DNA from: Vicinamibacterales bacterium
Lineage (GTDB): Bacteria > Acidobacteriota > Vicinamibacteria > Vicinamibacterales > JAMQPK01
Length of the DNA stretch: 64,000 nucleotides
Assembly (NCBI GenBank): GCA_963784045.1
Contig: CAWAPZ010000017.1
Coordinates: 67,816 to 131,815, forward strand
Reading direction: 5' to 3'
In this document: in pieces, positions 2,325 through 32,008 of the stretch
How the letters are laid out: each line of letters starts with the position of its first letter
How positions within the stretch are numbered: position 1 is the first letter of the stretch
Position numbers and translations under genes: made by a program
Notes under the pieces: model-generated
What the model was told of the DNA's origin: nothing
The model's database searches: none
What the model saw: only the letters and a program-made list of their open reading frames with translations

Positions 2325-3695
<1,371 letters not shown>

Positions 3696-3708
3696 GGCGC
3701 AACTTATC

Positions 3709-4107
3709 TTAGACGGATTTTCCGACGCTGTCGCGCAGAGCCTGACCGACCAACGCCGCAAGGCTCTCGACTTCGAACGGCTTGCTGATCACTTGATAGG
3801 CCCCCAGGGCAGCGGCGCCTTGTGCCAGTTCGGGGCTGTTGTGCGCCGTAATCATGATGACACTGGACGTCGGTGCGAGGCGCCTCACCTGTTCGAGTAG
3901 CCGCAAATCAGCCGAATCCGGCAGACGGTAATCGAGCAGCACGACGTCGAAAGGCTCCGCCGCGCTTTCGATAGCGGCCACCGCCATGCGCCCGTCACCG
4001 GCCTGGGTCACCATATATCCGCGTTCCCCCAGAGTCTCGGACAGCGACCAGCGAATCAATGCCTCGTCGTCGACTACGAGAACCGAGGGTGCGAATTTTT
4101 TCTGCAT
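3709..4107 (-). CDS. Stand-alone receiver-domain response regulator
   Basis: [20 protein letters not shown]...[10 protein letters not shown]...ISKPF, a CheY-like fold with no output domain. It lies 13 nt upstream of the NtrC-like gene. Confidence 0.8.
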
Positions 4108-4219
4108 ACGGGGAATATTCCTCATCTCGGATTTCACGTCGCCCTCGAAAGGCGGCTTTGCGGGCAAATACGTTAACATCGCGGTCTCCGACCACTCGGT
4201 TCTTCAATTCTCGGGCCAT

Positions 4220-5641
4220 ATGGAACCTGTCCTCCAGTCAATTTTCGACTCTGCGGTCGACGGCATCATCGTCATCGACGGCCAAGGGATCGTGAAGGCC
4301 TTTAATCCAGCCGCAGAGCGGCTCTTCGGGTATGCCGCAGAGGAAGTGCTCGGCCAGAACGTCAAGCTCTTGATGCCGAGCCCCGACCGCGAGGAGCACG
4401 ACGGGTACATCAGCACGTATATCCAGACTGGGATCCCGAAGGTCATCGGAACCGGGCGCGAGGTGCGCGGACGCCGCAAGGACGGCAGCACGTTTCCCGT
4501 CCATCTATCGGTAGGACGGATGGACATCGACGGCGAACCGGCGTTTACCGGGATTCTTCACGACTTGAGCCGGCGCGTGGAAATCGAGGACGCCCTTCGA
4601 AAGAGTGAGGAACACCTGCGCTCCATCGTCGAATCAGCCGTTGACGCGATTATCGTCATCGACGATCGTGGCCTTGTACAGGCGTTCAACCCCTCAGCGG
4701 AGCGCTTGTTCGGATACGCCCTCGACGAGGCCCTCGGACGCAACGTCAGCATGCTGATGCCGAGTCCCGACCGCGAACAGCACGACGGCTACCTGCAGCG
4801 CTACCTGAAGACCGGCGAGCAGAAGATCATCGGGATCGGCCGCGAAGTGACCTGCCTCAAGAAAGACGGCTCGCGCTTTCCGGTGCACCTCTCTGTCGGC
4901 GAGATGGTGAGCGAGGGGAAGCGCAGCTTTACGGGCATCCTTCACGATCTCAGCGATCGCGTCGCGCTCGAACAACGACTGGCCGAGCAAAAATCGCTCG
5001 CCAAGCTCGGCGAGATGGCGGCGGTCGTCGCGCATGAAGTGAAGAACCCGATTGCCGGCATTCGCGGTGCGCTTCAGGTCATCACGTCGCGCATGCCCGC
5101 AGACCAGCGCGATCGCGCGATCCTGCTCGACATCATCACGCGTCTCGACGCCCTGAACCGTATCGTGCAGGACATGCTGATGTTCGCGCGGCCGCGCGCG
5201 CTGCGTCAGGAGCCGGTTCCCCTCGGTTCGCTGCTGCGCGAGACGGCGGCGCTCATCGAACGGGATCCCGGGATGCTCAATCTCGAGATCGACGTCAGCG
5301 GCTCGGCCGACATCATCGGCGATCGCGAGATGCTGCAGGTCGTCTTTCAGAACATCCTGATGAACGCGGCGCAGGCGATGCAGGGCGAGGGACGAATCGA
5401 CGTCACGATCGCCGTTGCGAACAGGCGCTGCCGTGTCGCCGTCGCCGATCGCGGCCCGGGCATGCCCGGCGACGTGCGCGAGAAGGCATTCGACGCGTTC
5501 TTCACGACGAAGCACCGCGGAACCGGTCTTGGTCTGCCCATTGCGAAGCGGGTGGTCGACGCCCACGGTGGTGCGATGCACATCGACGTCCCGCCGCAGG
5601 GCGGCACCACTATTTCGGTCGACCTCCCGCTGCGCCAGTAG
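4220..5641 (+). CDS. Soluble histidine kinase with two tandem FixL-type haem-PAS domains
   Basis: Start trimmed to MEPVLQS (ATG 4220). Two paralogous PAS modules carry LMPSPDREEHDGYISTY...IGTGREVRGRRKDGSTFPVHLSVG and LMPSPDREQHDGYLQRYLKTGEQKIIGIGREV...KDGSRFPVHLSVGEM. These closely resemble the rhizobial FixL haem pocket (as I recall it, HEHDGYLQRY...RIIGIDR...KDGSTFPM.L). H-box is AHEVKNPIAG, and the HATPase domain has N, G1 and G2 boxes. Confidence 0.85.
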   Translation: MEPVLQSIFDSAVDGIIVIDGQGIVKAFNPAAERLFGYAAEEVLGQNVKLLMPSPDREEHDGYISTYIQTGIPKVIGTGREVRGRRKDGSTFPVHLSVGRMDIDGEPAFTGILHDLSRRVEIEDALRKSEEHLRSIVESAVDAIIVIDDRGLVQAFNPSAERLFGYALDEALGRNVSMLMPSPDREQHDGYLQRYLKTGEQKIIGIGREVTCLKKDGSRFPVHLSVGEMVSEGKRSFTGILHDLSDRVALEQRLAEQKSLAKLGEMAAVVAHEVKNPIAGIRGALQVITSRMPADQRDRAILLDIITRLDALNRIVQDMLMFARPRALRQEPVPLGSLLRETAALIERDPGMLNLEIDVSGSADIIGDREMLQVVFQNILMNAAQAMQGEGRIDVTIAVANRRCRVAVADRGPGMPGDVREKAFDAFFTTKHRGTGLGLPIAKRVVDAHGGAMHIDVPPQGGTTISVDLPLRQ

Positions 5642-7022
5642 GCGTCGCACCGGAGTTCACGCCGCTTCGCGGAAGCGCTGCCTGTCCGCGACGCGTTTCG
5701 TCTATCGACAAGGCCAGCACGCGCACCGATTCCTGATCGGCGTGAAAACCCATCGAGTTTTCCGCCTCGATGAAATCCAACAGGAATTGGCCGCGGCGTT
5801 GATGCCGCCGTGCCGCCTCCAGCGCGGCATCGTCTGCACCGCCGGCTTTGGCTGCTTTGATGTCGCCAATGAGCGCCATCAGCGCGTCCATCGCGACGTT
5901 TCGCACCTCGAACGTGCGGTCCTGAATCGTCTCGACGCGCGAGCGCAACTCCTCCTCTGACCAGCGATGGCACGTCTGGCACGCCCGGTTGATGTTCAAC
6001 AGAGGGCTGCGCACGTGATGGTCGCTGATCTTCATGGCGCCGACACGCTGATACGGCATGTGGCAATCGGCGCAGGCGACGCCCGACCGAGCGTGAATGC
6101 CTTGATTCCACATCTCGAACTCGGGGTGCTGTGCCTTCAACGTCGGCGCGCCCGTTTCGGCGTGCGTCCAATCCTTGAAACCGGTCTCCTCGTAGTAGGA
6201 CAGAATCTGATCGGCGCGCAGCCCGTTGTCCCACGGGTAAGTCAACCGCTTCTCCGGCCCCTTGAAGTAATACTCGACGTGGCACTGCCCGCATACATAC
6301 GCGCGCATTTCCTGCCGGGTCGCGTCTCGATTGACGTCGTAATTCGAAATGCCTTGCGCAGCCTTGATCTTCTGGATGCCTTCCAGGAACCCGGGACGGG
6401 TGACACGCAGCTGCATCGACGCCGGATCGTGGCAGTCGATGCACGCCACCGGATGCGACACGAGCGTGCGCGCCTCCTGATAGGTCATCCGGTTCATCGC
6501 CTCGAAGCCTTTCATCAGATCGCCGCCGCCGAGTTTTTTGTATGGAGCGTAGACCGACCCGTGACAGTGCATGCACGTACCCGGCTGTTGCACGACGGCC
6601 TGACGTTCTGTGAACGTTTGATCGTCGAGCATGTACGCGTGCCCACGCTCCTCCCGAAAGTCCTTTGCGAATGCATATCCCGCCCATAGCGTCTTGAGCC
6701 GCGGATCCTCCTCGAGCCGCGACTGCGCGACGACCGACCGCGGATCGACGCTGGTCGGCGTCCGCGGAATCGCTTCGCTGCCGCCGTAGCGCGTTCGCAC
6801 CTGATCGACCGTGCGCTTGTAGCCGTCGTATTGCAGTGGAAAATTCTTTCCCCACGCTGCCGGATCGACGATCTCGTCGTTCAATTCGACGACGCGATAG
6901 AACGGGTTCCGGGCCTCCTGCTGGCGTTGAAAGATATTTACGAGCATCGCGGTCGCGCCCAGTGCCAATACCGCGGCGAGAACCGCGATCAAGACCGGTG
7001 AGGTGAATCGGCGTGTGCTCAT
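5610..7022 (-). CDS. nrfA: Pentahaem cytochrome c nitrite reductase (ammonia-forming), variant with CXXCH at the catalytic haem
   Basis: 470 aa with an N-terminal anchor. Five haem motifs: CMHCH, CIDCH, CGQCH, CADCH, CQTCH. NrfA-like blocks YPWDNG and EMWNQGIHARSGVACADCHMPY. Start overlaps the nrfH stop by 4 nt. Confidence 0.85.
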   Translation of the reverse strand: MSTRRFTSPVLIAVLAAVLALGATAMLVNIFQRQQEARNPFYRVVELNDEIVDPAAWGKNFPLQYDGYKRTVDQVRTRYGGSEAIPRTPTSVDPRSVVAQSRLEEDPRLKTLWAGYAFAKDFREERGHAYMLDDQTFTERQAVVQQPGTCMHCHGSVYAPYKKLGGGDLMKGFEAMNRMTYQEARTLVSHPVACIDCHDPASMQLRVTRPGFLEGIQKIKAAQGISNYDVNRDATRQEMRAYVCGQCHVEYYFKGPEKRLTYPWDNGLRADQILSYYEETGFKDWTHAETGAPTLKAQHPEFEMWNQGIHARSGVACADCHMPYQRVGAMKISDHHVRSPLLNINRACQTCHRWSEEELRSRVETIQDRTFEVRNVAMDALMALIGDIKAAKAGGADDAALEAARRHQRRGQFLLDFIEAENSMGFHADQESVRVLALSIDETRRGQAALPRSGVNSGATPTGAAGGRPK

Positions 7023-7474
7023 TCGATATGCCCTACCTCATTGTGACAGCTGGTACACGTCAGGCCGCCCCGGCCACCGTCGGCGTGCGCGGGATCGATT
7101 GCGAGCGTCAATTCCTCATGACACTTGCGGCAGGCGCGCTCGGTCACCTCGTGATTGCGCGACGTGATCCGCAAGGGATCCGGGTACCGTCCTGTTGTGA
7201 AGTAGAACGAGTGCCAGAATCCATTCTGGGCTTTCGTCAGATATTTCGGAACGAGGCCAGGCGGGGTATGGCAGTCGTTGCAAACGGCTACGGCGCGATG
7301 ACTCGAGCGCGTCCACGCATCGAAATGATCCTGCATGACGTGGCAGTTGGCACACGCCTGGGGATCGTTGGTGAGATACGAGTAGCCCTTGGCGTAGACG
7401 AAGGTGTAAGACCCTACGCCAACCAGCACGCCAACAAACACACCCGCCAGGAGAATTGCGCGATTACCCGCCAT
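7019..7474 (-). CDS. nrfH: Tetrahaem NapC/NirT/NrfH-family quinol dehydrogenase
   Basis: 151 aa with an N-terminal TM helix. Motifs CANCH, CNDCH, CRKCH, CTSCH. Directly upstream of and overlapping nrfA. Confidence 0.85.
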   Translation of the reverse strand: MAGNRAILLAGVFVGVLVGVGSYTFVYAKGYSYLTNDPQACANCHVMQDHFDAWTRSSHRAVAVCNDCHTPPGLVPKYLTKAQNGFWHSFYFTTGRYPDPLRITSRNHEVTERACRKCHEELTLAIDPAHADGGRGGLTCTSCHNEVGHIE

Positions 7475-15556: not shown

Positions 15557-16237
15557 CTAGAGATCGGCTGTGATGCGGGAGAGAACGCCAGCCACGACAC
15601 GGTCGCAACGTGGCCTGTAGAAGCGGAAGACTTCCAACGCCGAGGAGCCGCTCCGCGCGATGAGGTCGTGGCGAATGGCGGCGCGCGCGCGAGACAACCG
15701 TGTCTTGACCACGTCTTCGGACACGTCCAACGCGGCTGCTACTTCGGCGGTGCTCATGCCTTCGACGTCGCGTAGTACGAACACTTCGCGCGCGCCGTCC
15801 GCGAGCCGATCGATCGCCGTCTCGAGCACCACGCGCAACTCACCGGCTGCGGCCTGCCGCTCTGGGTCTGGGAGTGCCGCGTCACTCATGCTCGACTCCA
15901 TGTCCATGGTGTCATCGTCGACAGACTGATAGTTTCGCTTGCGGCGTACGCGCGCCAGGGCCTCGTTGATCGCAATTCGTGTCAACCATGTCGAGAATTG
16001 CGCGCGCCCGTGGAACTGACGCAGGTGGGCGTACGCATTCACGTACGCCTGTTGCATCACGTCTTCCGCTTCCGTGTCATCCCTGAGAATGGCGCGCGCC
16101 GCTCGATAGATGCGCTCGTTATGACGGCGCATCAGTATTTCGAACAGCGCCGTATGTCCCTCGAGCACGCTGGCGACAACCTCTTCGTCGGTCAGCTTGC
16201 CCCATCGCTCGAGAATGGGCGCATTCACGATATGCAT
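15557..16237 (-). CDS. ECF-type sigma-70 family factor with a C-terminal extension of about 40 aa
   Basis: Region 2 (DVMQQAYVNAYAHLRQF...FSTWLTRIAINEA) and region 4 (MSTAEVAAALDVSEDVVKTRLSRAR), followed by ...SALEVFRFYRPRCDRVVAGVLSRITADL. Confidence 0.8.
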   Translation of the reverse strand: MHIVNAPILERWGKLTDEEVVASVLEGHTALFEILMRRHNERIYRAARAILRDDTEAEDVMQQAYVNAYAHLRQFHGRAQFSTWLTRIAINEALARVRRKRNYQSVDDDTMDMESSMSDAALPDPERQAAAGELRVVLETAIDRLADGAREVFVLRDVEGMSTAEVAAALDVSEDVVKTRLSRARAAIRHDLIARSGSSALEVFRFYRPRCDRVVAGVLSRITADL

Positions 16238-16287: not shown

Positions 16288-16351
16288 ACGTATTCAGGGT
16301 CAGCTCACTCTAATCAGAAGAAGGAATCGAGGAAATTTGAAGGAGAGTGAG

Positions 16352-17584
16352 ATGAAACGTATCAGCATACGAACGATCGGTGGACTTCTCGTCGTGTTCG
16401 TACTCTTTCTGACATACGCCCTATCTCAATTCCCTCCACGAGCGACAGCGCAGCCCATGGACGGCAAGGCGATTTTCCGCTTCGACACGTTCGGTGACGA
16501 ACAACTCTGGACGGATTTCCTTCGCATGCACGAGGCCATCGACGATGTCGATCCGAAGACGGCACTTTCCGTAGGGCTCAAGGTCGACGTCGAGGCGCTG
16601 CCTTCGGAACTCATCGCCGCGTTAAGAGCGAAAGACGTGGATTTGTCGAGTCCGGCGGTGACGATCGAGCTGCTTCGGCTCAACGCCATTGTCGGCGTCA
16701 AAGGGAACGTCAACAGCGCCGGTCGGCTCACCAGCATTGGAATCACCTGCGCGTTATGCCATTCGTCGGTCGATGATTCTTTGATGCCTGGAATCGGCAA
16801 GCGCCTCGACGGATGGGCGAATACCGATTTGAACGTCGGCGCTATCGTCGCGCTGTCTCCGGCGCCGGAGATTGACGACGCGCTCAAGGCCGAGTTGAAT
16901 ACCTGGGGCCCCGGTAAATACGATCCGCGACACCATGCGTTCGATGGCACCGACCTCCGAATATTGCATAAGGGATCAAAATCACTTCCCGTCGTGATTC
17001 CGCCCATCTATGGGCTGAAACACGTCGGTTTCGAAACATATACGGGCGACGGACCGATCTCGTACTGGAACAGTTACGTCGGGGTATCGCAAATGGGCGG
17101 GCAAGGCAACTTCAACGACGACCGTATCGACCTGTTCATCGAGCAATCGCCGGACCTGGTCACACCGAAGCTGGGAGCCTTGTTCGACTATCAAGTGGGA
17201 TTGCACACTCCCAAACCTCCCGAAGGCAGCTTCAATCGGCAGGCTGCGAACCGCGGCCGGCAACTGTTCCAAAAACAGGCTCGATGCGCCTCCTGCCACT
17301 CGGATGCGACGACGTACACCGATGTCTTGAGCAGTCCCCACGCCACCGTGCCGGTTCTCCACGAGCCGACCGAGATCGGAACTGAACCGGTGTATGCCAC
17401 CCGGAGCGCCACAGGAAAATATCGGGCGACTCCGCTTCGCGCCCTCTGGCAGCATGCACCCTACTTCCACGACGGGAGCGCCGCCGATCTGTCGGCCGTT
17501 GTCGAGCACTACAACACGCAGTTCAAGCTGAACTTGACCCCTGCGCAGAAAGCCGACCTTGTCGAGTTCTTGAAGACGCTGTAG
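16352..17584 (+). CDS. Secreted dihaem c-type cytochrome-like protein, function unknown
   Basis: AAGGAG Shine-Dalgarno before ATG 16352. Signal/anchor helix. Two CXXCH motifs (CALCH, CASCH). C-terminal block PLRALWQHAPYFHDGSAADL resembles dihaem peroxidase-like families. Confidence 0.65.
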   Translation: MKRISIRTIGGLLVVFVLFLTYALSQFPPRATAQPMDGKAIFRFDTFGDEQLWTDFLRMHEAIDDVDPKTALSVGLKVDVEALPSELIAALRAKDVDLSSPAVTIELLRLNAIVGVKGNVNSAGRLTSIGITCALCHSSVDDSLMPGIGKRLDGWANTDLNVGAIVALSPAPEIDDALKAELNTWGPGKYDPRHHAFDGTDLRILHKGSKSLPVVIPPIYGLKHVGFETYTGDGPISYWNSYVGVSQMGGQGNFNDDRIDLFIEQSPDLVTPKLGALFDYQVGLHTPKPPEGSFNRQAANRGRQLFQKQARCASCHSDATTYTDVLSSPHATVPVLHEPTEIGTEPVYATRSATGKYRATPLRALWQHAPYFHDGSAADLSAVVEHYNTQFKLNLTPAQKADLVEFLKTL

Positions 17585-24450: not shown

Positions 24451-24629
24451 CTTCGACCTCACTTGTGATGGGTAGATCGTCCAGCGCACGCTCAGATTCT
24501 GCTCGGAAACATTAACACCAGACATCGACACCAGAAAGCTGAAGCGGCAGACGGCGGGCCCCCCGAGGATGACCAATGCATATGATGCCCGTCATACCCG
24601 AACGCACTTCCGCGCTTTAGAGTTGAAAC

Positions 24630-25958
24630 ATGCAACAAGTACCACCGACACCACCGCGCGTCTTTGTCCGGTTCTTCATCGCGTCGCTCTTGCTCACGCT
24701 CACCTGGGGCGCCACGCTGGGAATGATCAACCTCGCTCGCCTCACGGCCGGGTGGGGTCTGGGCGTGCTGCCGAGACCCTCGGTCTGGGCCCACGGCTAC
24801 GTTCAGGTCTTCGGGTTCATGGCGCTCTTCATCATGGGCGTTGCGTATCACGTGCTGCCCCGTTTCGTCGGCGGCACGTTAAAAAGTGCCTGGCTCGTCC
24901 CCTGGTCGTTCTGGCTTCAGTTGTGCGGGGTCGTCGCGATCGCATGCGCGTTCTTCCACGACGGCGCAGTGACGCGGCCGCTATGGATTGCCGGCAGCAC
25001 GTCGCTGCTGGCCGCCGCGGCTATCTTCTGCACGGTCGTGATGCGGACGCTGCGCGCCGGCGACCCCGCACGCGAGGCGTTCATGCCATGGATCGCGGCC
25101 GGCGCGTCGTGGCTCGTCATCGCCTCTGCGCTGGCCCTCACAGCGGCGATCACCGGCGATGTGACCTGGCACCGCGTGCTATGGACGGCGGCGCTGTCCG
25201 GGTTCATCAGCTGCTGGATATTCGGCGTCGGCCGGCGGATTCTGCCGATTTTTCTGGGCTGCCAGCCGCGATGGCCGCATATCGAAACTCCTGTGTTCAT
25301 CCTCTATCAGATCGGCACCGCCGCGTGGGTCCTCGGCGCCTGCCAGGGGACAGATTCGCTCGTGCTCACCGTCGTGCGCACGGCAGGTGCGGTTCTGATG
25401 ATTGCGTCAGTTGCCGGTTACACGACGTGCCTCGGACTATTCACGTCAACCCGCCCTCTGCTTGGATGCGCGATTCGCAGCCCGCAGAGCGGGTGGGAGA
25501 AGTACGTGTTCGCCGCGTGGGGTTGGCTGGTCGTAAGTCTCATCCTTGGACCGGGCGCAGCGATCGTCCGCGCATTCACCGGCGGTACCGAGTTGCTGCT
25601 CGTGTTCGACGTGGCCCGTCACGCGCTCGGATTCGGGTTTGCCGCGCAAATGGTGCTAGGCGTGGCAAGCCGCGTCGTCCCGAACTTCACCGGCAGACCG
25701 CTATGGAGCCCCCGCGCGCGCGACGCCGCGTTCTACCTGCTGAACGCCAGCATGGCCATCCGCACGCTCGAAGTGCCTGTCGGGCTTGGACTCTGGGTGC
25801 AGGCCTGGAATCTGATCGCATTGTCTGGACCGCTGGGCGTTGGCGCCATGCTGCTGTTCGCAACCAACATTTTCATGACGGTGCGGCGCCAGCCATCCCC
25901 GCTCGTCCAGGCCCACGTGCCGGTCCAAACTGTGCGCAGACTCGTTCTCGAGAAGTAA
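24630..25958 (+). CDS. NnrS-like polytopic membrane protein
   Basis: 442 aa with about 12 predicted TM helices. WAHGYVQVFGFMALFIMGVAYHVLPRF resembles the NnrS H-x-H...FGF signature. First gene of the Mo-enzyme operon. Confidence 0.5.
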   Translation: MQQVPPTPPRVFVRFFIASLLLTLTWGATLGMINLARLTAGWGLGVLPRPSVWAHGYVQVFGFMALFIMGVAYHVLPRFVGGTLKSAWLVPWSFWLQLCGVVAIACAFFHDGAVTRPLWIAGSTSLLAAAAIFCTVVMRTLRAGDPAREAFMPWIAAGASWLVIASALALTAAITGDVTWHRVLWTAALSGFISCWIFGVGRRILPIFLGCQPRWPHIETPVFILYQIGTAAWVLGACQGTDSLVLTVVRTAGAVLMIASVAGYTTCLGLFTSTRPLLGCAIRSPQSGWEKYVFAAWGWLVVSLILGPGAAIVRAFTGGTELLLVFDVARHALGFGFAAQMVLGVASRVVPNFTGRPLWSPRARDAAFYLLNASMAIRTLEVPVGLGLWVQAWNLIALSGPLGVGAMLLFATNIFMTVRRQPSPLVQAHVPVQTVRRLVLEK

Positions 25959-25982
25959 TACACTCAGCACAGGATTGACCTG

Positions 25983-27098
25983 ATGCAGGCGCGTAAACCA
26001 GAGGGGCCGCCGCACATCCCGGCTCATCGCGAAACATTCCGCGCCGCAGCATGGGGCGTGCTGTTCACCGCCGTGCTGGCGTCGCTCATCGTCGTCGGAT
26101 CTCGCGGTCTCGAGCATTTCGACGCCGCTCTCGTTGGCTACACGTTCGCGACGCTCTTCGCGATGTTCGGAATCACCTATCGCTACGCGATGTGGCTGCA
26201 GCGGCCGCCAACGCGCATGTACTGGCGGCGCGGCTGGCAGGTATTTCTCACGCCGCGCTCCCCAGGCCGAAAAGCGGTGCAGTTGTCACGCCGCCTGTTC
26301 GTCGAATTCGGCGCCAATCGTTTTATCTTCCGCCGAGGCGCGCTCCGCGGCGCCGCGCACTGGCTCATCATGTGGGGCTGCATCCTCGCGGGGGCCATCA
26401 CGTTCCCGCTCGTATGGGGATGGATCGAGTTCCGCACTGTTCCGAATCGATTCGACCAGTACCGCACGTTCGTCTTCGGCTTTCCCGCCACGGCATTCCG
26501 GATTGACTCGTGGATCGCCTTCGTGGTCTTTCACGGACTCGTGTGGGCCTCGCTCCTCGTCATGGCCGGCGTTATGATTGCGTTCCGCCGCCGGATGGTC
26601 GATCACGGAGCGATCGCGGTCCAGCAGATCGCCGACATCCTGCCGTTGGTGCTGTTGTTCGCGATCAGCGTCACAGGACTGCTGCTGACGGCGAGCTATA
26701 CGTGGATGAAGGGATACGCGTACGACTTTCTCGCGATCCTCCACGCCATTACCGTGATCTTCACGCTGTTATGGCTGCCGTTCGGAAAACTGTTTCACAT
26801 CTTCCAACGGCCTGCGCAACTTGGCGTCAGCTTTTACAAAGACGAGGGCCGCCGCGCCGAACAGGCGCAGTGCCGCCGCTGCGGCGTGGCGTTCGCGTCG
26901 AACATCATGGTCCGCGACCTCGCCGAGGTCGAGAGGCAGCTCGGCTTCAGCTACGACATGAAACCGGAGGAAGGCGCCGAGCACTATCAACAGATCTGCC
27001 CGCGATGCCGGCGCGCGTTGTTCGGCCTCGCACAAGGCGCGCTGTGGCGGCAAGCGCTGAACAACCGGCTGAGCGACGATGTCGACACGTCCCGTTGA
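25983..27098 (+). CDS. NarI/DsrM-like dihaem cytochrome b membrane subunit with a C-terminal CxxC...CxxC zinc-ribbon tail
   Basis: Five or six TM helices with four intramembrane His ([36 protein letters not shown]). The last block is typical of the nitrate-reductase-gamma superfamily. Cytoplasmic tail: CRRCGVAF...30 aa...CPRCRR. Confidence 0.6.
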
Positions 27099-29349
27099 CG
27101 AGCTGAAAATTATCGAGCGATTCGGGCCGCACCTTGCCCTGATGCGCGGCGAGCGGCTCTCGACAACCGTCGAGCCCGAGCGCCTCGTACGTACGCACTG
27201 CTGCTTCTGCGGTCAGCAGTGCGGCATTCAACTGAAGGTCAAGGACAACGAGGTGATCGGGTTCGAGCCGTGGGAAGAATTTCCGTTCAACCGCGGAATG
27301 TTGTGCCCGAAGGGCGTCAAGCGCTACCTGCAAGGATCACACCCTGATCGGCTCGTCACCGCGCTGGAGCGCGACGAGTCGTCGCCGGCCGGATTCCGCG
27401 ATGTCCCGTACGACCAGGCCATAGCGAAGGTCGCATCGGAGATTCAACGTCTTCAAAGCGCCTACGGCAACAGCTCCGTCGGCCTGCTGGGCGGTGCGAG
27501 CCTGACGACCGAGAAAACCTATCTGCTCGGAAAGTTCGCCCGAGTGTGTTTGAAGACGCCGTATATCGACTACAACGGACGGCTGTGCATGGTGAGCGCC
27601 GGCGCAGCCAACAAGAAAGCGTTCGGCATCGACCGGACGACAAACCCGTGGTCGGACATGATCGGCACAGACGTCATCTGGGTCGCCGGCTCCAACGTCG
27701 CCGAATGCTCTCCGATCACAACGAACTACATCTGGCAGGCGCGCGAGCAGGGCGCGAAGGTCATCGTGCAGGATCCGCGCATCACTCCGCTCGCGCGGAC
27801 ATGCGACTTGTTTCTCCCCGTGAAGCCTGGCCGCGACGCGGCGTTGTTCGCCGGCGTGCTCAACGTCATGATCGATCGCGGCTGGATCGACCGCGACTTC
27901 ATCGAGGCGCAGACCGTTGGCTTCGAGCAGGTCGCCGAGTACTGCCGTCAATGGACGCCGGAACGCACCGCCGAGGTCACCGGCGTGCCTGCGCGATCGC
28001 TGCTGCAGGCGGCCGAATGGTGGGGGACGGCGAACACGAGCTTCCTCTTCCACGCGCGCGGTATCGAGCACCATTCCAACGGCGTGCAGAACGCGCTCGG
28101 GACGATCAACCTCGTGCTGGCGACCGGGCGCATCGGCAAGCCCAAGAGCGGCTACGGCACGATCGTCGGTCAGGCCAATGGGCAAGGCGGCCGCGAACAC
28201 GGGCAGAAATGCGATCAGCTGCCTGGCTGGCGCGACATCACGAATCCGGATCATCGCAAATACATCGCCGGCGTGTGGGGCATCGAGGAATCTGCAATGC
28301 CCGGCCCCGGAGTCGACGCGTACGAGATGTTCCGGAAGATCGACGCTGGAGAAATCAAAGGCCTGGTGGCGATCTGCTTCAACCCGACGGTCTCGCTGCC
28401 GGATTCAGGCTTCATCGAGCGGTGTCTCGACAAGCTCGAGTTCTTCGTGTCGATCGACTTCTTCCTCAACGACACCGCGCGTCATGCCGACGTCGTGCTG
28501 CCCGGGAGCTTGCAGGAAGAGGACGAAGGCGTCGTGACGCAAGTCGAGGGGCGTGTCATCAAGATCAACAAGGCCGTCGACTGCCCGGGCGAGGCGCGGC
28601 AGGATTGGATCATCATTCAGGACATCGCAAAAGCGCTGGGCCGCCCGCACGGGTTCACATTCACTACGCCGCGCGAGATTTTCGACGAGCTCCGGCGGGC
28701 CAGCAAAGGCGGTGTCGCCGATTACTCCGGCATTACATACGAAAAAGTCGAGCGTGAGATGGGCGTCTTCTGGCCGTGCTACAGCGAGGATCCGAAAACG
28801 GGCGTCGCAGTCGACCATCCCGGCACGCCGCGCCTGTTCGAACGCGACAGCTACAACCCGATCGCGAAAGGCTCGGGTCCGTTCTATTTCCCCGACGGAA
28901 AAGCGCGGTTCAACGTGGCCGACTACCGCGTACCCGTCGACGACGTCAGCGCCGACTTCCCGATCTTCCTCACGACCGGCCGTGTCATCAGCCAGTTCCT
29001 CTCGGGTACACAGACGCGGCGCATCGGTCCGCTCGTCGCGCAATACCCGGAACCCCGGATCGAAATACATCCACGCCTTGCCGACAAACTCGGTGTTGTC
29101 GACGGCGCGTGGACGGTCGTCGAAACGCGGCGCGGCGCGTTGACGCTGCGCGCGATGGTCGTCACGACCATCAGGCCGGACACGGTGTTCGTGCCGTACC
29201 ACTGGCCGGGCGAGAAGAGCGCCAACCGGCTCACAGTCGCCGCCCAGGATCCCATCAGCAAGATCCCGCAGTACAAGGTGTGCGGATGCCGAGTCCGAAA
29301 AGCAGACGCGGCGCCGGCGTACGCCGCGGTACTCGAGCCGCAACAGTAA
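27079..29349 (+). CDS. Mo-bisPGD oxidoreductase catalytic subunit, Nas/NarB/Nap-like, no Tat signal
   Basis: 756 aa. N-terminal [4Fe-4S] motif [10 protein letters not shown]...MLCPKG. Putative Mo-ligand context [17 protein letters not shown] (Cys codon 27586..27588). No RR leader. ATG overlaps the upstream gene by 20 nt. Confidence 0.85.
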
Positions 29350-29380
29350 CCACGAAGACACGAAAACACGAAGACGAGAG
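29350..29380 (+). repeat. CACGAAGA 8-nt tandem array filling the spacer between the Mo and FeS subunit genes
   Basis: taa C CACGAAGA CACGAAAA CACGAAGA CGAGAGAT C atg. The 13-mer CACGAAGACACGA recurs at 42432. Confidence 0.65.
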
Positions 29381-29383
29381 ATC

Positions 29384-30118
29384 ATGCCTAAACCGGCCCA
29401 CCTGAACTTCTACATCGATCCCAACCGATGCATCGGATGCCAGGCGTGCGTGCAAGCCTGCACCGAATGCGACACGCATCGCGGCGAGTCGATGATTCAC
29501 CTCGAGTTCATCAACCGCGCGGCGAGCGTGCAGACGGTGCCGGTCGTCTGCATGCACTGCGAGCAGCCCACGTGCGCCGAGGTGTGCCCCGCCGACGCCA
29601 TCAAGCGGTCTGGTGACGGCGTCGTGCAATCGGCGTTGAAACCGCGGTGCATCGCGTGCGGCAACTGCGTCCTCGCATGTCCCTTCGGTGTTCCCGAGGT
29701 GTACGAGGATCGGCAGATCATGATGAAGTGCGACATGTGCTACGACCGCACCAGCACAGGCAAGCGGCCGATGTGCGCGACGGTCTGCCCGAGTCAGGCG
29801 CTCTTCTTCGGCAGCGCGGAGCAGATCGCGCAGCTTCGGCCGATGTCCGAGCCTGTAAACAGATTCCAGTTCGGAAGACAAACCATCTCGACGCGTGTCT
29901 CCCTGATGGTGCCGAAACAGATCGCGAGGCCGCAACCCCTGGTCGATGTCACCGCGGCGATGCAGGAGGCGCCGAGCAACCGCGCAATCACATTCAAGGT
30001 TGTTGCCGACCTGAAGGTCGGCACTACGACACGGGTGGCCGACCTCCAGGTCGGCACGACAGCCGATCGCAACGTCGGCACGACCACAGATGACCCATTC
30101 GATGAGGTGGACATTTGA
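29384..30118 (+). CDS. Four-cluster [4Fe-4S] ferredoxin subunit (DmsB/NrfC/PsrB-like), no Tat signal; its C-terminal tail is built from REP-like hairpins
   Basis: [44 protein letters not shown]...CATVCP. Tail: [32 protein letters not shown]. Confidence 0.85.
30004..30084. repeat. REP-like palindromic hairpins inside the FeS-subunit coding sequence
   Basis: GCCGACC-TGAA-GGTCGGC (30005..30022), GCCGACC-TCCA-GGTCGGC (30038..30055) and a half copy CGTCGGCACGAC. A 25-mer is identical to 45421..45445. Confidence 0.8.
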
Positions 30119-30759
30119 GCGCCGAACAGGACCCTCGACACCGAATCGACGCGCGCGTCGATACGCCACAACGCGAAGGGCTCACCGGAACGGCACCCAC
30201 CAGCCTGTATCGGCCCATTGTGGACGCCGATGAGATTACGCGGGCGCCGGACGGAAAGCCGCTCGTCGAGCAGCCGAAATGGCGGCGCGATTTTCCCATC
30301 GACACGCCGCAAGATCTCTACGTCGCGCGCCGCGACTTCATGAAGTTCATGGTCCTGACGAGTCTTGCGTTCACCGTTGGACAGTTCTGGATCGCCGCCC
30401 AGAACTGGCTCAGGCGCCGCCGGGGAGCGCCAGAGTTGAAAAAGATTGCGAGCCTCGCGGAGATTCCTGTCGGCGGGGCGATCACGTTTCTCTATCCCGA
30501 GCCCGCCGATCGCTGCATTCTGGTTCGTCCAGCCCCGGATGTCGTCGTCGCGTTCAGCCAGCAGTGCACACATTTGTCCTGCGCGGTGATCCCTCAGCCC
30601 GAGCAGAACCGCCTTTTCTGCCCCTGCCATGAAGGCGCGTTCGATCTGCAATCGGGCCGCCCCATCGCAGGCCCTCCGAACCGTCCGCTCACGCGTGTGC
30701 TTCTCGACGTGCGCGGCAACGATGTCTACGCATCAGGCATCGAATTGAGGACGGTGTAG
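30115..30759 (+). CDS. Membrane-anchored Rieske [2Fe-2S] protein (bc-complex type)
   Basis: Cluster boxes CTHLSC and CPCHEGAF. Single TM helix preceded by ARRDFMKF (twin-arginine-like). About 65-aa hydrophilic N-terminal extension if the TTG 30115 start (TTGA overlap with the upstream stop) is correct. Confidence 0.75.
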
Positions 30760-30761
30760 CC

Positions 30762-30998
30762 ATGCCCCTCACCCGCCCGTACTCGCGCGACCAGCGAGCC
30801 ACAATCGTGTACGGCATGCTTGCGTTCGTGCTGATGCTCGTCTTTCTGCAGTTGTGGCTGCTCACCGCGACCATGAATGCGTATCTCGGGGGCGACGAGT
30901 CGGTCATCTGGCCTGCGGCGGCGGCCAGCCTGGTGTGCCTGCTTCTCAATGCCGGTCTTTGGCGATATCTCATCCGGATGGAACAGGCGCGTTCGTGA
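30762..30998 (+). CDS. Small two-TM membrane protein (78 aa)
   Basis: Starts 2 nt after the Rieske stop, and its stop overlaps the next start (GTGA). Two hydrophobic helices (IVYGMLAFVLMLVFLQLWLL and AAAASLVCLLLNAGLW). Confidence 0.5.
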   Translation: MPLTRPYSRDQRATIVYGMLAFVLMLVFLQLWLLTATMNAYLGGDESVIWPAAAASLVCLLLNAGLWRYLIRMEQARS

Positions 30999-32008
30999 AC
31001 CTCGCCGCCATGCACCCGGCGTACTTCGCGCTGGTGATGGCCACCGGCATCGTCTCCATCGCCGCACACCTGACCGGACTGCCGCGGGTCGCTTACAGCC
31101 TGTTCTGGTTGAATATCGCTTTTTACGCCGGCCTGTGGGCGATGACAGCCGCCCGCGTGATTCGGCACCGCCAGCACGTGATCGACGACCTGATGGATCA
31201 CGGCCGATCGGTCGGTTTCTTCACGACGGTCGCAGCGACATGCGTGCTCGGCAGTCAGTTCGTGCTTCTCGGTGGAATGTGGCGAGCCGGCGCGGCGCTC
31301 TGGTTTGCCGGTATCGCGTTGTGGGCGCTGATCACGTACTCGGTGCTTACGATCCTTACAGTCAAACCGGTCAAGCCGCCGCTCGCGCAAGGCATCAGCG
31401 GCGGGTGGCTGCTGCCGGTCGTCGCCGCGCAGTCCGTGTCGGTGCTGGGAACGCAGCTCGCGCCGGGATTCGATGCGCCCGAAAAGATATTGTTCTTCTC
31501 CCTTGCGATGTGGCTTGGCGGGGGGATGCTCTACATCTGGATCATCTCGATCATCTTCTACCGCTATACCTTCTTTCCGCTGCTGCCGTCGGAGCTCGCG
31601 CCGCCCTACTGGATCAACATGGGCGCGGTCGCAATCTCGACGCTCGCCGGTGCGCTGCTCGTCCTGGCCGCTCCGGCCTCGCCGCTGCTGACTGGCCTCC
31701 TGCCGTTTCTGAAGGGCCTGGCGTTGTTGTTCTGGTCGACCGCCACCTGGTGGATTCCAATGCTGCTCGTTCTCGGCACGTGGCGGCACGTGGTCCAGAG
31801 GTTTCCGTTCAAGTACGACCCGCTTTACTGGGGCGCGGTGTTTCCGCTCGGGATGTACACCGTCTGCACCATTCGCCTCTCGCAGGCGCTCGATGTGCCC
31901 TTCCTCACAACGCTGGCGGGTGTGTTCGTGTTCGTAGCGCTCTTCGCATGGCTGGTCGTCGCCGCCGGCTGGGTCGTGTCGATCTTGAAACTAAAATCTA
32001 CAATCTGA
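30995..32008 (+). CDS. TDT-family (TehA/Mae1/SSU1/SLAC1-type) anion channel or transporter
   Basis: Start set to in-frame GTG 30995 (VNLAAMHPAYFALVMATGIVSIAAHL). About 10 TM helices. Typical TehA-like N-terminus and length. Confidence 0.7.
   Translation: MNLAAMHPAYFALVMATGIVSIAAHLTGLPRVAYSLFWLNIAFYAGLWAMTAARVIRHRQHVIDDLMDHGRSVGFFTTVAATCVLGSQFVLLGGMWRAGAALWFAGIALWALITYSVLTILTVKPVKPPLAQGISGGWLLPVVAAQSVSVLGTQLAPGFDAPEKILFFSLAMWLGGGMLYIWIISIIFYRYTFFPLLPSELAPPYWINMGAVAISTLAGALLVLAAPASPLLTGLLPFLKGLALLFWSTATWWIPMLLVLGTWRHVVQRFPFKYDPLYWGAVFPLGMYTVCTIRLSQALDVPFLTTLAGVFVFVALFAWLVVAAGWVVSILKLKSTI

Follow-up and report, generated by a model that had tools for sequence, protein, structure and literature searches.

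What kind of enzyme is made by a run of seven genes that joins a molybdenum-bis(pyranopterin guanine dinucleotide) (Mo-bisPGD) oxidoreductase to a cytochrome b, a Rieske protein and an anion channel? The question is raised by a locus at positions 24630-32008 of a 64,000-nucleotide stretch of DNA from a Vicinamibacterales bacterium (GenBank assembly GCA_963784045.1, contig CAWAPZ010000017.1, positions 67,816 to 131,815 of the forward strand), the whole of which is called the window hereafter. The first-pass annotation of this DNA, made from the letters alone, could match the subunit set to no described enzyme. The answer that we favour, with a probability of about 0.6, is that the locus encodes a membrane-bound, energy-conserving nitrate reductase of the respiratory type, whose cytoplasmic active site would be fed through two b haems. 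Taken by itself, the nitrate reductase function of the complex is very probable. What is new here is the architecture of the probable nitrate reductase; the linkage of the Mo, iron-sulfur (FeS) and Rieske genes had already been noticed in 2012. Heylen and Keltjens described nasC linked to FeS and Rieske genes in B. bataviensis and Bacillus sp. 1NLA3E, read the linkage as assimilatory, and presented neither experiments nor any mention of a cytochrome b, a small subunit or a transporter (PMC3475470). The full-text literature searched, from which most subscription journals are absent, contained no account of the complete set of subunits; within it, the statement that nothing matches holds for the set as a whole and fails for these three genes.

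The seven open reading frames (ORFs) are co-directional on the plus strand, and the ORF listing bears out the coordinates, the junctions and the motifs that had been quoted for them. The junctions are of +24, -20, +34, -4, +2 and -4 nucleotides, in the order of the following list (window coordinates). The last frame stops at 32008, and homology places its start at the GTG at 30995.

24630..25958, plus strand: NnrS-like polytopic membrane protein of 442 residues (Pfam NnrS, PF05940)
25983..27098, plus strand: NarI-like putative dihaem cytochrome b with six transmembrane helices and a C-terminal Cys4 domain (conserved ligands, AlphaFold (AF2) model)
27079..29349, plus strand: catalytic Mo-bisPGD subunit of the Nas/NarB type, 756 residues (Pfam and NCBIfam)
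29384..30118, plus strand: four-[4Fe-4S] electron-transfer subunit of the DmsB/FdnH/NrfC class (Fer4_11)
30115..30759, plus strand: bc-type Rieske [2Fe-2S] protein with a TTG start (PF00355)
30762..30998, plus strand: DUF6755 small two-transmembrane subunit of 78 residues (PF20540)
30995..32008, plus strand: anion channel or transporter of the SLAC1/TehA (TDT) family (PF03595)

Comparison with other loci shows that the conserved unit is not the seven genes first proposed. It is a five-gene core, made up of the cytochrome b, Mo, FeS, Rieske and small two-transmembrane genes, plus one interchangeable nitrate/nitrite transporter. A near clade was taken from a one-genome-per-species scan with the cytochrome b, from which the best 80 of more than 468 relatives were used; these cytochromes b are 67-81% identical to the window protein. 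They come from metagenome-assembled genomes (MAGs) labelled Vicinamibacteria, Blastocatellia, Tepidisphaeraceae, Isosphaeraceae, Binatia and Acidimicrobiia, and from the isolate Sorangium cellulosum So ceGT47, and the phyla with the module include Acidobacteriota, Planctomycetota and, with S. cellulosum, Myxococcota. The order cytochrome b-Mo-FeS-Rieske-DUF6755 is kept in every near-clade locus long enough to judge. Outside this clade the nearest full-length neighbour of the catalytic subunit is P0242, with 51% identity, and a metagenome scan with P0242 returned 80 loci that make up a deep clade. Here the identity to the window proteins falls to 45-50% for the Mo subunit, 31-41% for the cytochrome b and 30-45% for the Rieske protein, the order cytochrome b-Mo-FeS-Rieske is kept, and a small two-transmembrane ORF of 63 or 109 residues follows. 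The deep clade includes cultured Bacillaceae (Peribacillus, Cytobacillus, Niallia, Neobacillus and Bacillus sp. 1NLA3E). Of 52 near-clade loci, 51 have a DUF6755 gene 3' of that for the Rieske protein, and a positional equivalent of 63 or 109 residues is present in 24 of 29 deep-clade loci; the 109-residue ORF gives a weak DUF6755 match.

In all, about 160 loci over two deep clades share the core gene order, and their flanks otherwise vary from locus to locus. The same order in so many independent loci places the clustering far beyond chance. The first-pass annotation had suggested looking for conserved gene order across phyla, and both this order and the unusual partner set were found to be conserved. 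It had also allowed that the seven genes might be fortuitous neighbours that form no complex; this idea is effectively refuted by the identical order in at least two deep clades and several phyla, by the overlapping stops and starts within the operon and by the variable flanks. The module is frequent in MAGs labelled Vicinamibacteria and present in many cultured Bacillaceae. In metagenomes it is very common: clustering at 90% identity left over 7,100 clusters for the anchor subunit and over 8,000 for the catalytic subunit, both of which are "at least" figures. A search for natural fusions (FeS-Rieske, Rieske-DUF6755 or Mo-FeS) gave only three isolated in-frame cases, probably assembly errors, in a kind of search where the long open frames of high-GC DNA are misleading.

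The gene that does not belong to the core is the first one. The NnrS protein scores 41.4 bits with PF05940 (gathering score 28) and its gene ends 24 nucleotides upstream of the cytochrome b gene; elsewhere, a close homologue stands directly upstream of the module only in locus L001, and distant NnrS-like genes lie near the module in a few other loci. NnrS is a sporadic, lineage-specific accessory. Locus L001 (CAYHHH010000027.1) is labelled as an uncultured Bifidobacteriaceae MAG, yet over the full length of the operon, NnrS included, it matches the window with 75-90% identity; this contig is almost certainly mis-binned. Over the 80 near-clade loci (L001-L080) the identity is about 70% for the cytochrome b and about 82% for the Mo subunit despite the assignment of the MAGs to different phyla, which implies recent horizontal spread among soil bacteria, mis-binning, or both. 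Another particularity was seen in the Bacillaceae operons, where two additional ORFs, for small soluble proteins of about 104 and 94 residues, lie between the 63-residue membrane ORF and narK (Bacillus sp. 1NLA3E, L161 14322-15106; also deep-clade L109 and L115) and recur in 15 and 25 deep-clade loci. Neither matched a Pfam or NCBIfam family, and they could be assembly factors.

The catalytic subunit gives the first indication of the substrate. It carries the Pfam domains Molybdopterin, Molydop_binding and Molybdop_Fe4S4, and its best NCBIfam model is NasC (NF047855), at 772.3 bits against an equivalog cut-off of 1100; bona fide NasC members (P0249 and P0250) reach 1171 and 1114 bits. It fails every equivalog cut-off tried, including those of NarG (TIGR01580, 49.6 bits against 1084) and of two NapA models (241 and 229 bits against 904 and 930), and the AioA/AioB models are also far below their cut-offs on the module proteins (TIGR02693, 117.7 against 359; TIGR02694, 35.9 against 95.65). 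The subunit is 39-44% identical to bona fide NasC (39% to one equivalog). Cys170-Met171 and the FS0 [4Fe-4S] motif, which includes LCPKG, align with the NasC motifs, and GRxCM.SA and GGREHGQK are common to both. In a neighbour-joining tree, which is crude and has no bootstrap, all module-linked Mo subunits stand together and adjoin the group containing bona fide NasC; GRxCM(S/V)(S/A)A is common to the module-linked and NasC sequences of the tree, whereas the formate-dehydrogenase-like outgroups have Cys-His. The Nap/Nas/NarB context first proposed was upheld for the Nas/NarB group, with the module-linked sequences set apart from NasC itself (772 against 1100 bits). Among the operon products we found no c-type cytochrome (CxxCH protein), no NapB/NapC or NapGH partner, no chaperone of the NarJ, TorD or NapD type, and no soluble reductant module (NasB/NirB, ferredoxin or flavodoxin).

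A second indication comes from the transporters. Among the 56 near-clade loci with complete core and flanks, 32 have a NarK-family protein of the major facilitator superfamily (MFS) directly upstream and 21 a SLAC1/TDT gene directly downstream of DUF6755; in the remainder NarK lies downstream (two loci) or both NarK and SLAC1 are present (one locus), and no locus has neither. The mutual exclusion of SLAC1 and NarK has a Fisher p of 1.6e-14. The 29 complete loci of the deep clade have NarK in 14 cases, an HPP-family protein (PF04982, 88.5 bits) in 13 and no transporter in two, so that the three kinds of companion are almost perfectly mutually exclusive. Furthermore, of the 43 loci with an upstream NarK, 40 have it in translational fusion with the cytochrome b, the joint ORF encoding about 780 residues. 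With 318.6 bits, the NarK encoded in the operon of Bacillus sp. 1NLA3E is above the family cut-off of 311.7, and the fused versions score 221-234. The window protein itself is a divergent member of its family, with 183.5 bits for SLAC1 PF03595 (gathering score 27.9) and 94.2 for TIGR00816 (cut-off 237); a PDB search with the SLAC1 homologue found nothing. Nitrite transport is the function of HPP proteins (Maeda et al. 2014, as cited in PMC7438415), and plant SLAC/SLAH channels conduct nitrate (PMC3509319). The SLAC1/TDT protein would then carry nitrate and/or nitrite for the complex. The channel had been proposed as the exporter of the product, and its mutual exclusion with NarK supports a role as transporter for the enzyme. 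In one further locus (L092, 10254-11759, minus strand), the NarK-type MFS protein adjoining the module bears a C-terminal PAS domain, a transporter-sensor fusion.

Regulators and neighbours point the same way. The Bacillus operon is followed by an NreA-like nitrate-sensor GAF kinase and a NarL-type regulator, and Crp/Fnr regulators recur near other loci. RIC/YtfE, which passes equivalog cut-offs, is found near 15 of the 56 near-clade loci, and genes for hemerythrin, truncated globin, a NorB-like oxidase and NnrS-like proteins recur as neighbours. Four independent lines, namely the catalytic clade with its motifs, the transporters, the regulators and the neighbours linked to nitric oxide (NO) stress, thus make nitrate the best assignment of the substrate, and a strong one; nitrate had been the best guess from the beginning. 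That the complex acts on another oxyanion (chlorate, selenate, tellurite or sulfite), as reductase or oxidase, with the TDT/SLAC1 protein handling that ion, appears very improbable. This proposal can point to the failure of the catalytic subunit at every equivalog cut-off and to the TDT family, whose model the window protein matches and which includes TehA, a protein of tellurite resistance. The first-pass annotation had also placed sulfite efflux pumps such as SSU1 in that family; the link that was checked is the one to TehA. Against it, NarK-family and HPP (nitrite) transporters replace SLAC1 in most loci, and the active-site motifs of NasC, the NreA-like nitrate sensor of the Bacillus operons and the NO-stress neighbours all speak for nitrate.

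How, then, is a NasC-like enzyme attached to the membrane? Annotation pipelines call the partner genes of the catalytic subunit hypothetical, and for the anchor gene every source does so. Its product has six predicted transmembrane helices and a C-terminal CxxC...CxxC (Cys4) domain. The Pfam NarI match is sub-threshold (PF02665, 17.2 bits against a gathering score of 22.9), as are those to TcuB, TmcC and QmoC; some Bacillaceae homologues carry a precomputed PF02665 match. PDB sequence and profile searches found no homologue, and in Pfam and NCBIfam there was no match to a bc1-type cytochrome b family. A model built from a shallow alignment (71-87% identity) had a predicted local distance difference test score (pLDDT) of 64, and the addition of Bacillaceae homologues of about 30% identity raised it to 87.6, with a predicted template modelling score of 0.79. 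With this AlphaFold model, Foldseek gave NarI as the only high-probability PDB analogue (probability 0.99, template modelling score 0.44-0.48, E about 0.1), a match that is supportive, not strong, for a dihaem NarI-like fold.

The putative haem ligands can be placed more closely. H126, H254, H272 and the cysteines C297, C300, C339 and C342 are invariant over both clades. In the deep-clade alignment of 52 sequences, which includes the window protein, residue 184 is Asn in 23 sequences, all of which have His45, and every sequence with Trp, Tyr or Asp at residue 45 has H184 (residues 45 and 184 are encoded at 26115-26117 and 26532-26534 of the window). This covariation suggests that the axial ligand of the outer haem has been swapped between two positions. 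NarK has 12 transmembrane helices with both ends in the cytoplasm, and since the N-terminus of the cytochrome b is fused to the C-terminus of NarK, this N-terminus should be cytoplasmic; this would put H126 and H272 close to the inner face of the membrane and H254 and H184 close to the outer one. A cytoplasmic position is likewise predicted for the Cys4 domain and for the large basic loops, all of which are invariant.

The FeS subunit matches Fer4_11 and has 16 conserved cysteines in four groups, without transmembrane helix or signal. It scores 96.7 bits with the DmsB model, below the cut-off, and 33.4 bits with the NarH model TIGR01660 (cut-off 524), and its closest PDB match is FdnH. Ahead of the conserved C-terminal DPFxEVxI motif, residues 207-234 or so (window about 30002-30085) form a repeat-like, lineage-specific insertion that is missing from most homologues. 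In neither clade was a Tat (twin-arginine translocation) leader or other signal, or a transmembrane helix, found in the Mo or the FeS subunit, and their reported lack of twin-arginine leaders was thus confirmed on a wide basis.

The Rieske protein is different in this respect. Its N-tail is conserved, it carries the twin-arginine motif ARRDFMKF and a single transmembrane helix, and each of RRDFxKFxVLTS, CTHLSC, CPCH and AGPPxRPL is at least 90% conserved in 63 Rieske sequences. The deep-clade proteins begin with a textbook Tat signal, as in ERKLDRRGFMKTLVGAAGVFAVSSLPWG..AAKE, whose flanking charges are unremarkable. Two extra cysteines and a Pro loop are hallmarks of the outer-face Rieske proteins of bc type and of AioB; both clades have retained the disulfide cysteines as well as the Pro loop, and the best PDB matches are the Thermus bc Rieske protein and AioB. 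With its invariant motif, the Rieske subunit is predicted to be held by a twin-arginine signal-anchor and to be exported, and its cluster domain is most likely on the outer face of the membrane. The remaining subunit, DUF6755 (PF20540, 118.7 bits, gathering score 27), is an N-in/C-in hairpin whose most conserved residues are in the outer loop (LQLWLLTATMNAxLGGD).

Taken together, these features suggest the following arrangement. The NasC-like Mo subunit and the four-cluster FeS subunit would sit on the cytoplasmic face, docked on the NarI-like anchor at its Cys4 domain and basic loops, while the outer side would bring together the Rieske domain inserted by Tat, the outer haem b and the loop of DUF6755; there, membrane quinol or a donor on the outer face would deliver the electrons. 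The electrons would pass inward over the two b haems and the FeS chain to the Mo centre, in an electrogenic redox loop like that of NarGHI which would generate membrane potential. Nitrate would enter and nitrite leave through the dedicated transporter, which is SLAC1/TDT here and elsewhere HPP or a NarK fused to the anchor, and the exported nitrite may in this organism be reduced to ammonium by NrfHA. We hold the cytoplasmic position of the Mo and FeS subunits with moderate confidence; quinol as the donor is a tentative suggestion, and so is any role of the Rieske cluster.

A cytoplasmic active site is favoured by the obligatory and often anchor-fused transporter, the signal-less Mo and FeS subunits, the conserved cytoplasmic features of the anchor, the Nas enzymes as closest relatives and the genes for cytoplasmic Fe-S repair nearby. 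An alternative places the active site outside, by analogy with pNar or arsenite oxidase: the Mo and FeS subunits would bind the folded Rieske protein and be co-exported by Tat, nitrate would be reduced outside, and the b haems would serve a Q-cycle-like branch. It is the Rieske protein, with its invariant twin-arginine motif (a classical signal in the deep clade) and the disulfide cysteines and Pro loop of outer-face proteins, that invites this proposal, and AioAB, whose signal is on the Rieske subunit only and whose AioB is among the best PDB matches, is a precedent. We nevertheless consider it improbable. An outside site needs no transporter, yet one accompanies 79 of the 81 complete loci and, where it is NarK, mostly forms a single chain with the anchor. 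No partner would be left for the Cys4 domain and loops that are invariant in the cytochrome b, the module contains no chaperone of the TorD/NarJ/NapD type, and the nearest relatives of the Mo subunit are the cytoplasmic Nas enzymes and not Nap. In addition, it is established knowledge that a reductase with a dihaem anchor is bioenergetically sensible only if its active site is inside, as can be seen by comparing NarGHI with the haem-free anchors of DmsABC and PsrABC. The first-pass proposal of a cytoplasm-facing enzyme probably survives for the Mo and FeS subunits, and it had missed the signal-anchor of the Rieske protein, which likely turns the cluster outward. It had also held that the known pairings of a Rieske protein with a Mo enzyme are outward-facing, leaving out the cytoplasmic NasG-NasC of Paracoccus (PMC3475470).

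A cytoplasmic site leaves the question of whether the nitrate is respired or assimilated. The same complex with the same topology might serve assimilation, quinol replacing NAD(P)H, ferredoxin or flavodoxin as reductant, and nitrite being kept for NirBD or NirA encoded elsewhere. NasC is the closest relative of the catalytic subunit at the 39-44% identity given above, the JGI annotation of the catalytic gene is assimilatory nitrate reductase, and for the Bacillus version "an alternative assimilatory system" was proposed by Heylen and Keltjens (PMC3475470); the abstract of PMC4724949 likewise reports a link between NasC systems and genes of NO detoxification. However, nas genes usually cluster with those for assimilatory nitrite reductase (PMC3475470), and no recurrent nirA, nirB or nirD was seen within 8-10 kb across the approximately 160 loci, in a sample, not exhaustive, that was covered by a motif scan and by a Pfam analysis of 103 ORFs from the flanks. 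The adjoining regulators are of the Crp/Fnr and NreA/NarL types and not of the kind that governs the response to nitrogen status, and a transmembrane dihaem anchor with a Rieske protein is respiratory hardware. B. bataviensis and Bacillus sp. 1NLA3E are denitrifiers, and the latter, which carries the operon, reduces nitrate to nitrous oxide (N2O) (PMC3703601). On account of the regulators, neighbours and hardware, the respiratory or dissimilatory role is favoured, and we regard assimilation as rather unlikely.

Even if the respiratory reading is right, the Rieske cluster has to find its place in it. Together with the outer haem it could make up a Qo-like site, from which one electron might pass to periplasmic acceptors; alternatively, it could be the entry point for periplasmic donors. 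The first possibility can be extended to a hybrid of complex III and Nar, in which a Qo-like site would be assembled from the Tat-exported Rieske protein, DUF6755 and a NarI-fold cytochrome b unrelated to that of bc1. One electron of each quinol would then go through the Rieske protein to outer-face cytochromes c, NrfA, Nir or Nos, while the other would cross the two b haems to cytoplasmic nitrate reduction, which replaces the Qi site. This hybrid is possible, though doubtful. If true, it would add a fourth architecture to the Nar, Nap and Nas classes of prokaryotic nitrate reductases, and Rieske-dependent quinol oxidation would have been invented independently. As for outer-face cytochromes, a gene for a dihaem cytochrome c (Cytochrome_CBB3/Cytochrom_C) was seen about 2 kb upstream of the module in one locus only, a Binatia MAG (L007, 7043-8248, minus strand), and its product could be an outer-face partner of the Rieske cluster.

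Several points weigh against the reading as a respiratory nitrate reductase with an inward-facing site. The likeness of the anchor to NarI is weak (Foldseek E 0.1, Pfam below threshold). A Tat-type anchor on the Rieske protein and none on the Mo subunit is the arrangement of AioAB, in which the Mo subunit is co-exported, and an outward active site is thereby possible. For a Rieske cluster on the outer face the operon encodes no acceptor, and what it would do in a redox loop like that of Nar is not obvious. The near-clade flank that follows the transmembrane helix of the Rieske protein is strongly basic (+4.7/-0.5), which is atypical for an exported domain. Moreover, many hosts (Sorangium, Vicinamibacteria, Peribacillus) are aerobes and may simply assimilate nitrate, and the label is assimilatory both at JGI and in the sole published comment (PMC3475470). 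The basic flank prompted us to consider a cytoplasmic Rieske domain (N-out/C-in); this was rejected in view of the textbook Tat signals with normal flanks in the deep clade, and it is also judged unlikely in that a charged N-tail of about 70 residues would need translocation.

Judged from its sequences, the complex fails the defining tests for NarGHI, Nap, the NasC equivalog, AioAB and a bc1-type complex, yet it appears to borrow from each of them. With NarGHI and NarK it would share a cytoplasmic Mo-bisPGD subunit and a four-cluster FeS subunit on a dihaem cytochrome b of NarI fold, electron transfer across the membrane, a NarK-type nitrate/nitrite transporter and the association with NO-stress genes. 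It differs in that its subunits are not NarG and NarH, the Mo ligand is Cys in place of the Asp of Nar, no NarJ is present, the anchor has six helices and a Cys4 domain, and a Tat-type Rieske protein and DUF6755 are added as membrane subunits.

The assimilatory enzymes NasC, NarB and NasA are the closest catalytic clade, with the Cys-Met and GGREHGQK motifs in common. In Paracoccus, moreover, NasC is fed through the Rieske-type, cytoplasmic NasG (PMC3475470), so that the NasC-NasG-NasB system also combines an enzyme of NasC type with a Rieske-type protein. The module, in contrast, falls below the NasC equivalog cut-off, has membrane partners where Nas has soluble NAD(P)H, ferredoxin or flavodoxin modules, does not cluster with nitrite reductase, and its Rieske protein is of bc type, with Tat anchor and disulfide, and not a soluble NirD-like protein.

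Similar partial likenesses were found in other systems. The haloarchaeal pNarGH with NarB and NarC also unites a nitrate reductase, a Rieske protein and a b-type cytochrome in one cluster. That enzyme is outward-facing, with a NarG-type catalytic subunit that bears a Tat signal, and its NarC is a bc1-type cytochrome b, whereas in the module the Mo subunit is signal-less and Nas-type, the cytochrome b is NarI-like with no bc1-family match, and a transporter is obligatory. The arsenite oxidase AioAB, like the iodate reductase IdrAB, has a signal-less Mo-bisPGD subunit and a Rieske subunit with a twin-arginine signal, and AioB is near in structure; Aio is an oxidase without four-cluster subunit, cytochrome b or transporter, and its models lie far below their cut-offs on the module proteins. 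The bc1/b6f complexes share the Tat-inserted Rieske anchor, the cluster boxes with disulfide cysteines, the Pro loop and an adjoining membrane dihaem b; the cytochrome b of the module is unrelated in sequence, there is no cytochrome c1 or f and no sign of a Qi site, and its low-potential chain would end in a nitrate reductase. The sulfite dehydrogenase SoeABC resembles the complex as conceived here, with signal-less Mo and four-cluster FeS subunits that face the cytoplasm on a membrane anchor; this anchor is, however, of the haem-free NrfD type, and SoeABC has no Rieske protein and belongs to a different catalytic clade with a different substrate. The Rieske and cytochrome b genes of the Caldithrix nap cluster were also considered as the same system and were rejected, being bc1-type and accompanied by a Tat-exported NapA.

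With regard to the surroundings of the operon in the window, the genes that flank it are unrelated to the module, and no second MopB or FeS paralogue is present in the 64 kb. Two further features are of interest:

24451..24629, no strand: divergent intergenic region of 179 nucleotides upstream of the operon, presumed promoter region (sequence reading)
5610..7474, minus strand: nrfHA, periplasmic ammonifying nitrite reductase, outside the module (NrfH model and NrfA-like protein)

In the upstream region neither a sigma-70 consensus nor an FNR/Dnr box was found. The nrfH product reaches 160 bits, above its equivalog cut-off of 134.2, and the NrfA-like protein beside it has five CxxCH motifs and 300 bits, below the cut-off. 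These genes lie 17 kb from the operon on the opposite strand, and no linkage of nrfHA to the module was seen in other loci; on the basis of their presence at this distance, it is plausible that they are a downstream partner in the pathway. They are adjoined by a sigma-54-dependent response regulator (2325-3761, minus strand) and a FixL-like PAS sensor kinase (3986-5641, plus strand), a candidate pair for oxygen- or redox-responsive control of nitrite ammonification. A decahaem c-type cytochrome of the DmsE/MtrA family, with ten CxxCH motifs, is encoded at 619-1647 on the minus strand (TIGR03508, 249 bits, cut-off 192) and hints at a capacity for extracellular or periplasmic electron transfer in the organism. 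Finally, the window contains genes for an extracytoplasmic function (ECF) sigma factor (15557-16237, minus strand) and a dihaem peroxidase/MauG-like protein (16337-17584, plus strand), both of which have recurrent homologues at distances of up to 10 kb from the module in several further loci.

If the complex conserves energy, surveys of narG and napA would be expected to miss a source of nitrite, and hence of NO, N2O or ammonium, and estimates of nitrate-respiring potential would be too low for those acidobacterial, planctomycete, myxobacterial and Bacillus genomes in which the operon is present. The combination of a Rieske protein, a cytochrome b that is not of bc1 type and a predicted cytoplasmic Mo enzyme would offer a new test case for the evolution of quinol-oxidising sites. 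The interchange of SLAC1/TDT, HPP and NarK as companions of one enzyme makes nitrate/nitrite transport by bacterial SLAC1 homologues a testable proposal. Since cultured hosts with complete genomes exist (Bacillus sp. 1NLA3E, Peribacillus simplex and Sorangium cellulosum So ceGT47), these predictions are directly testable.

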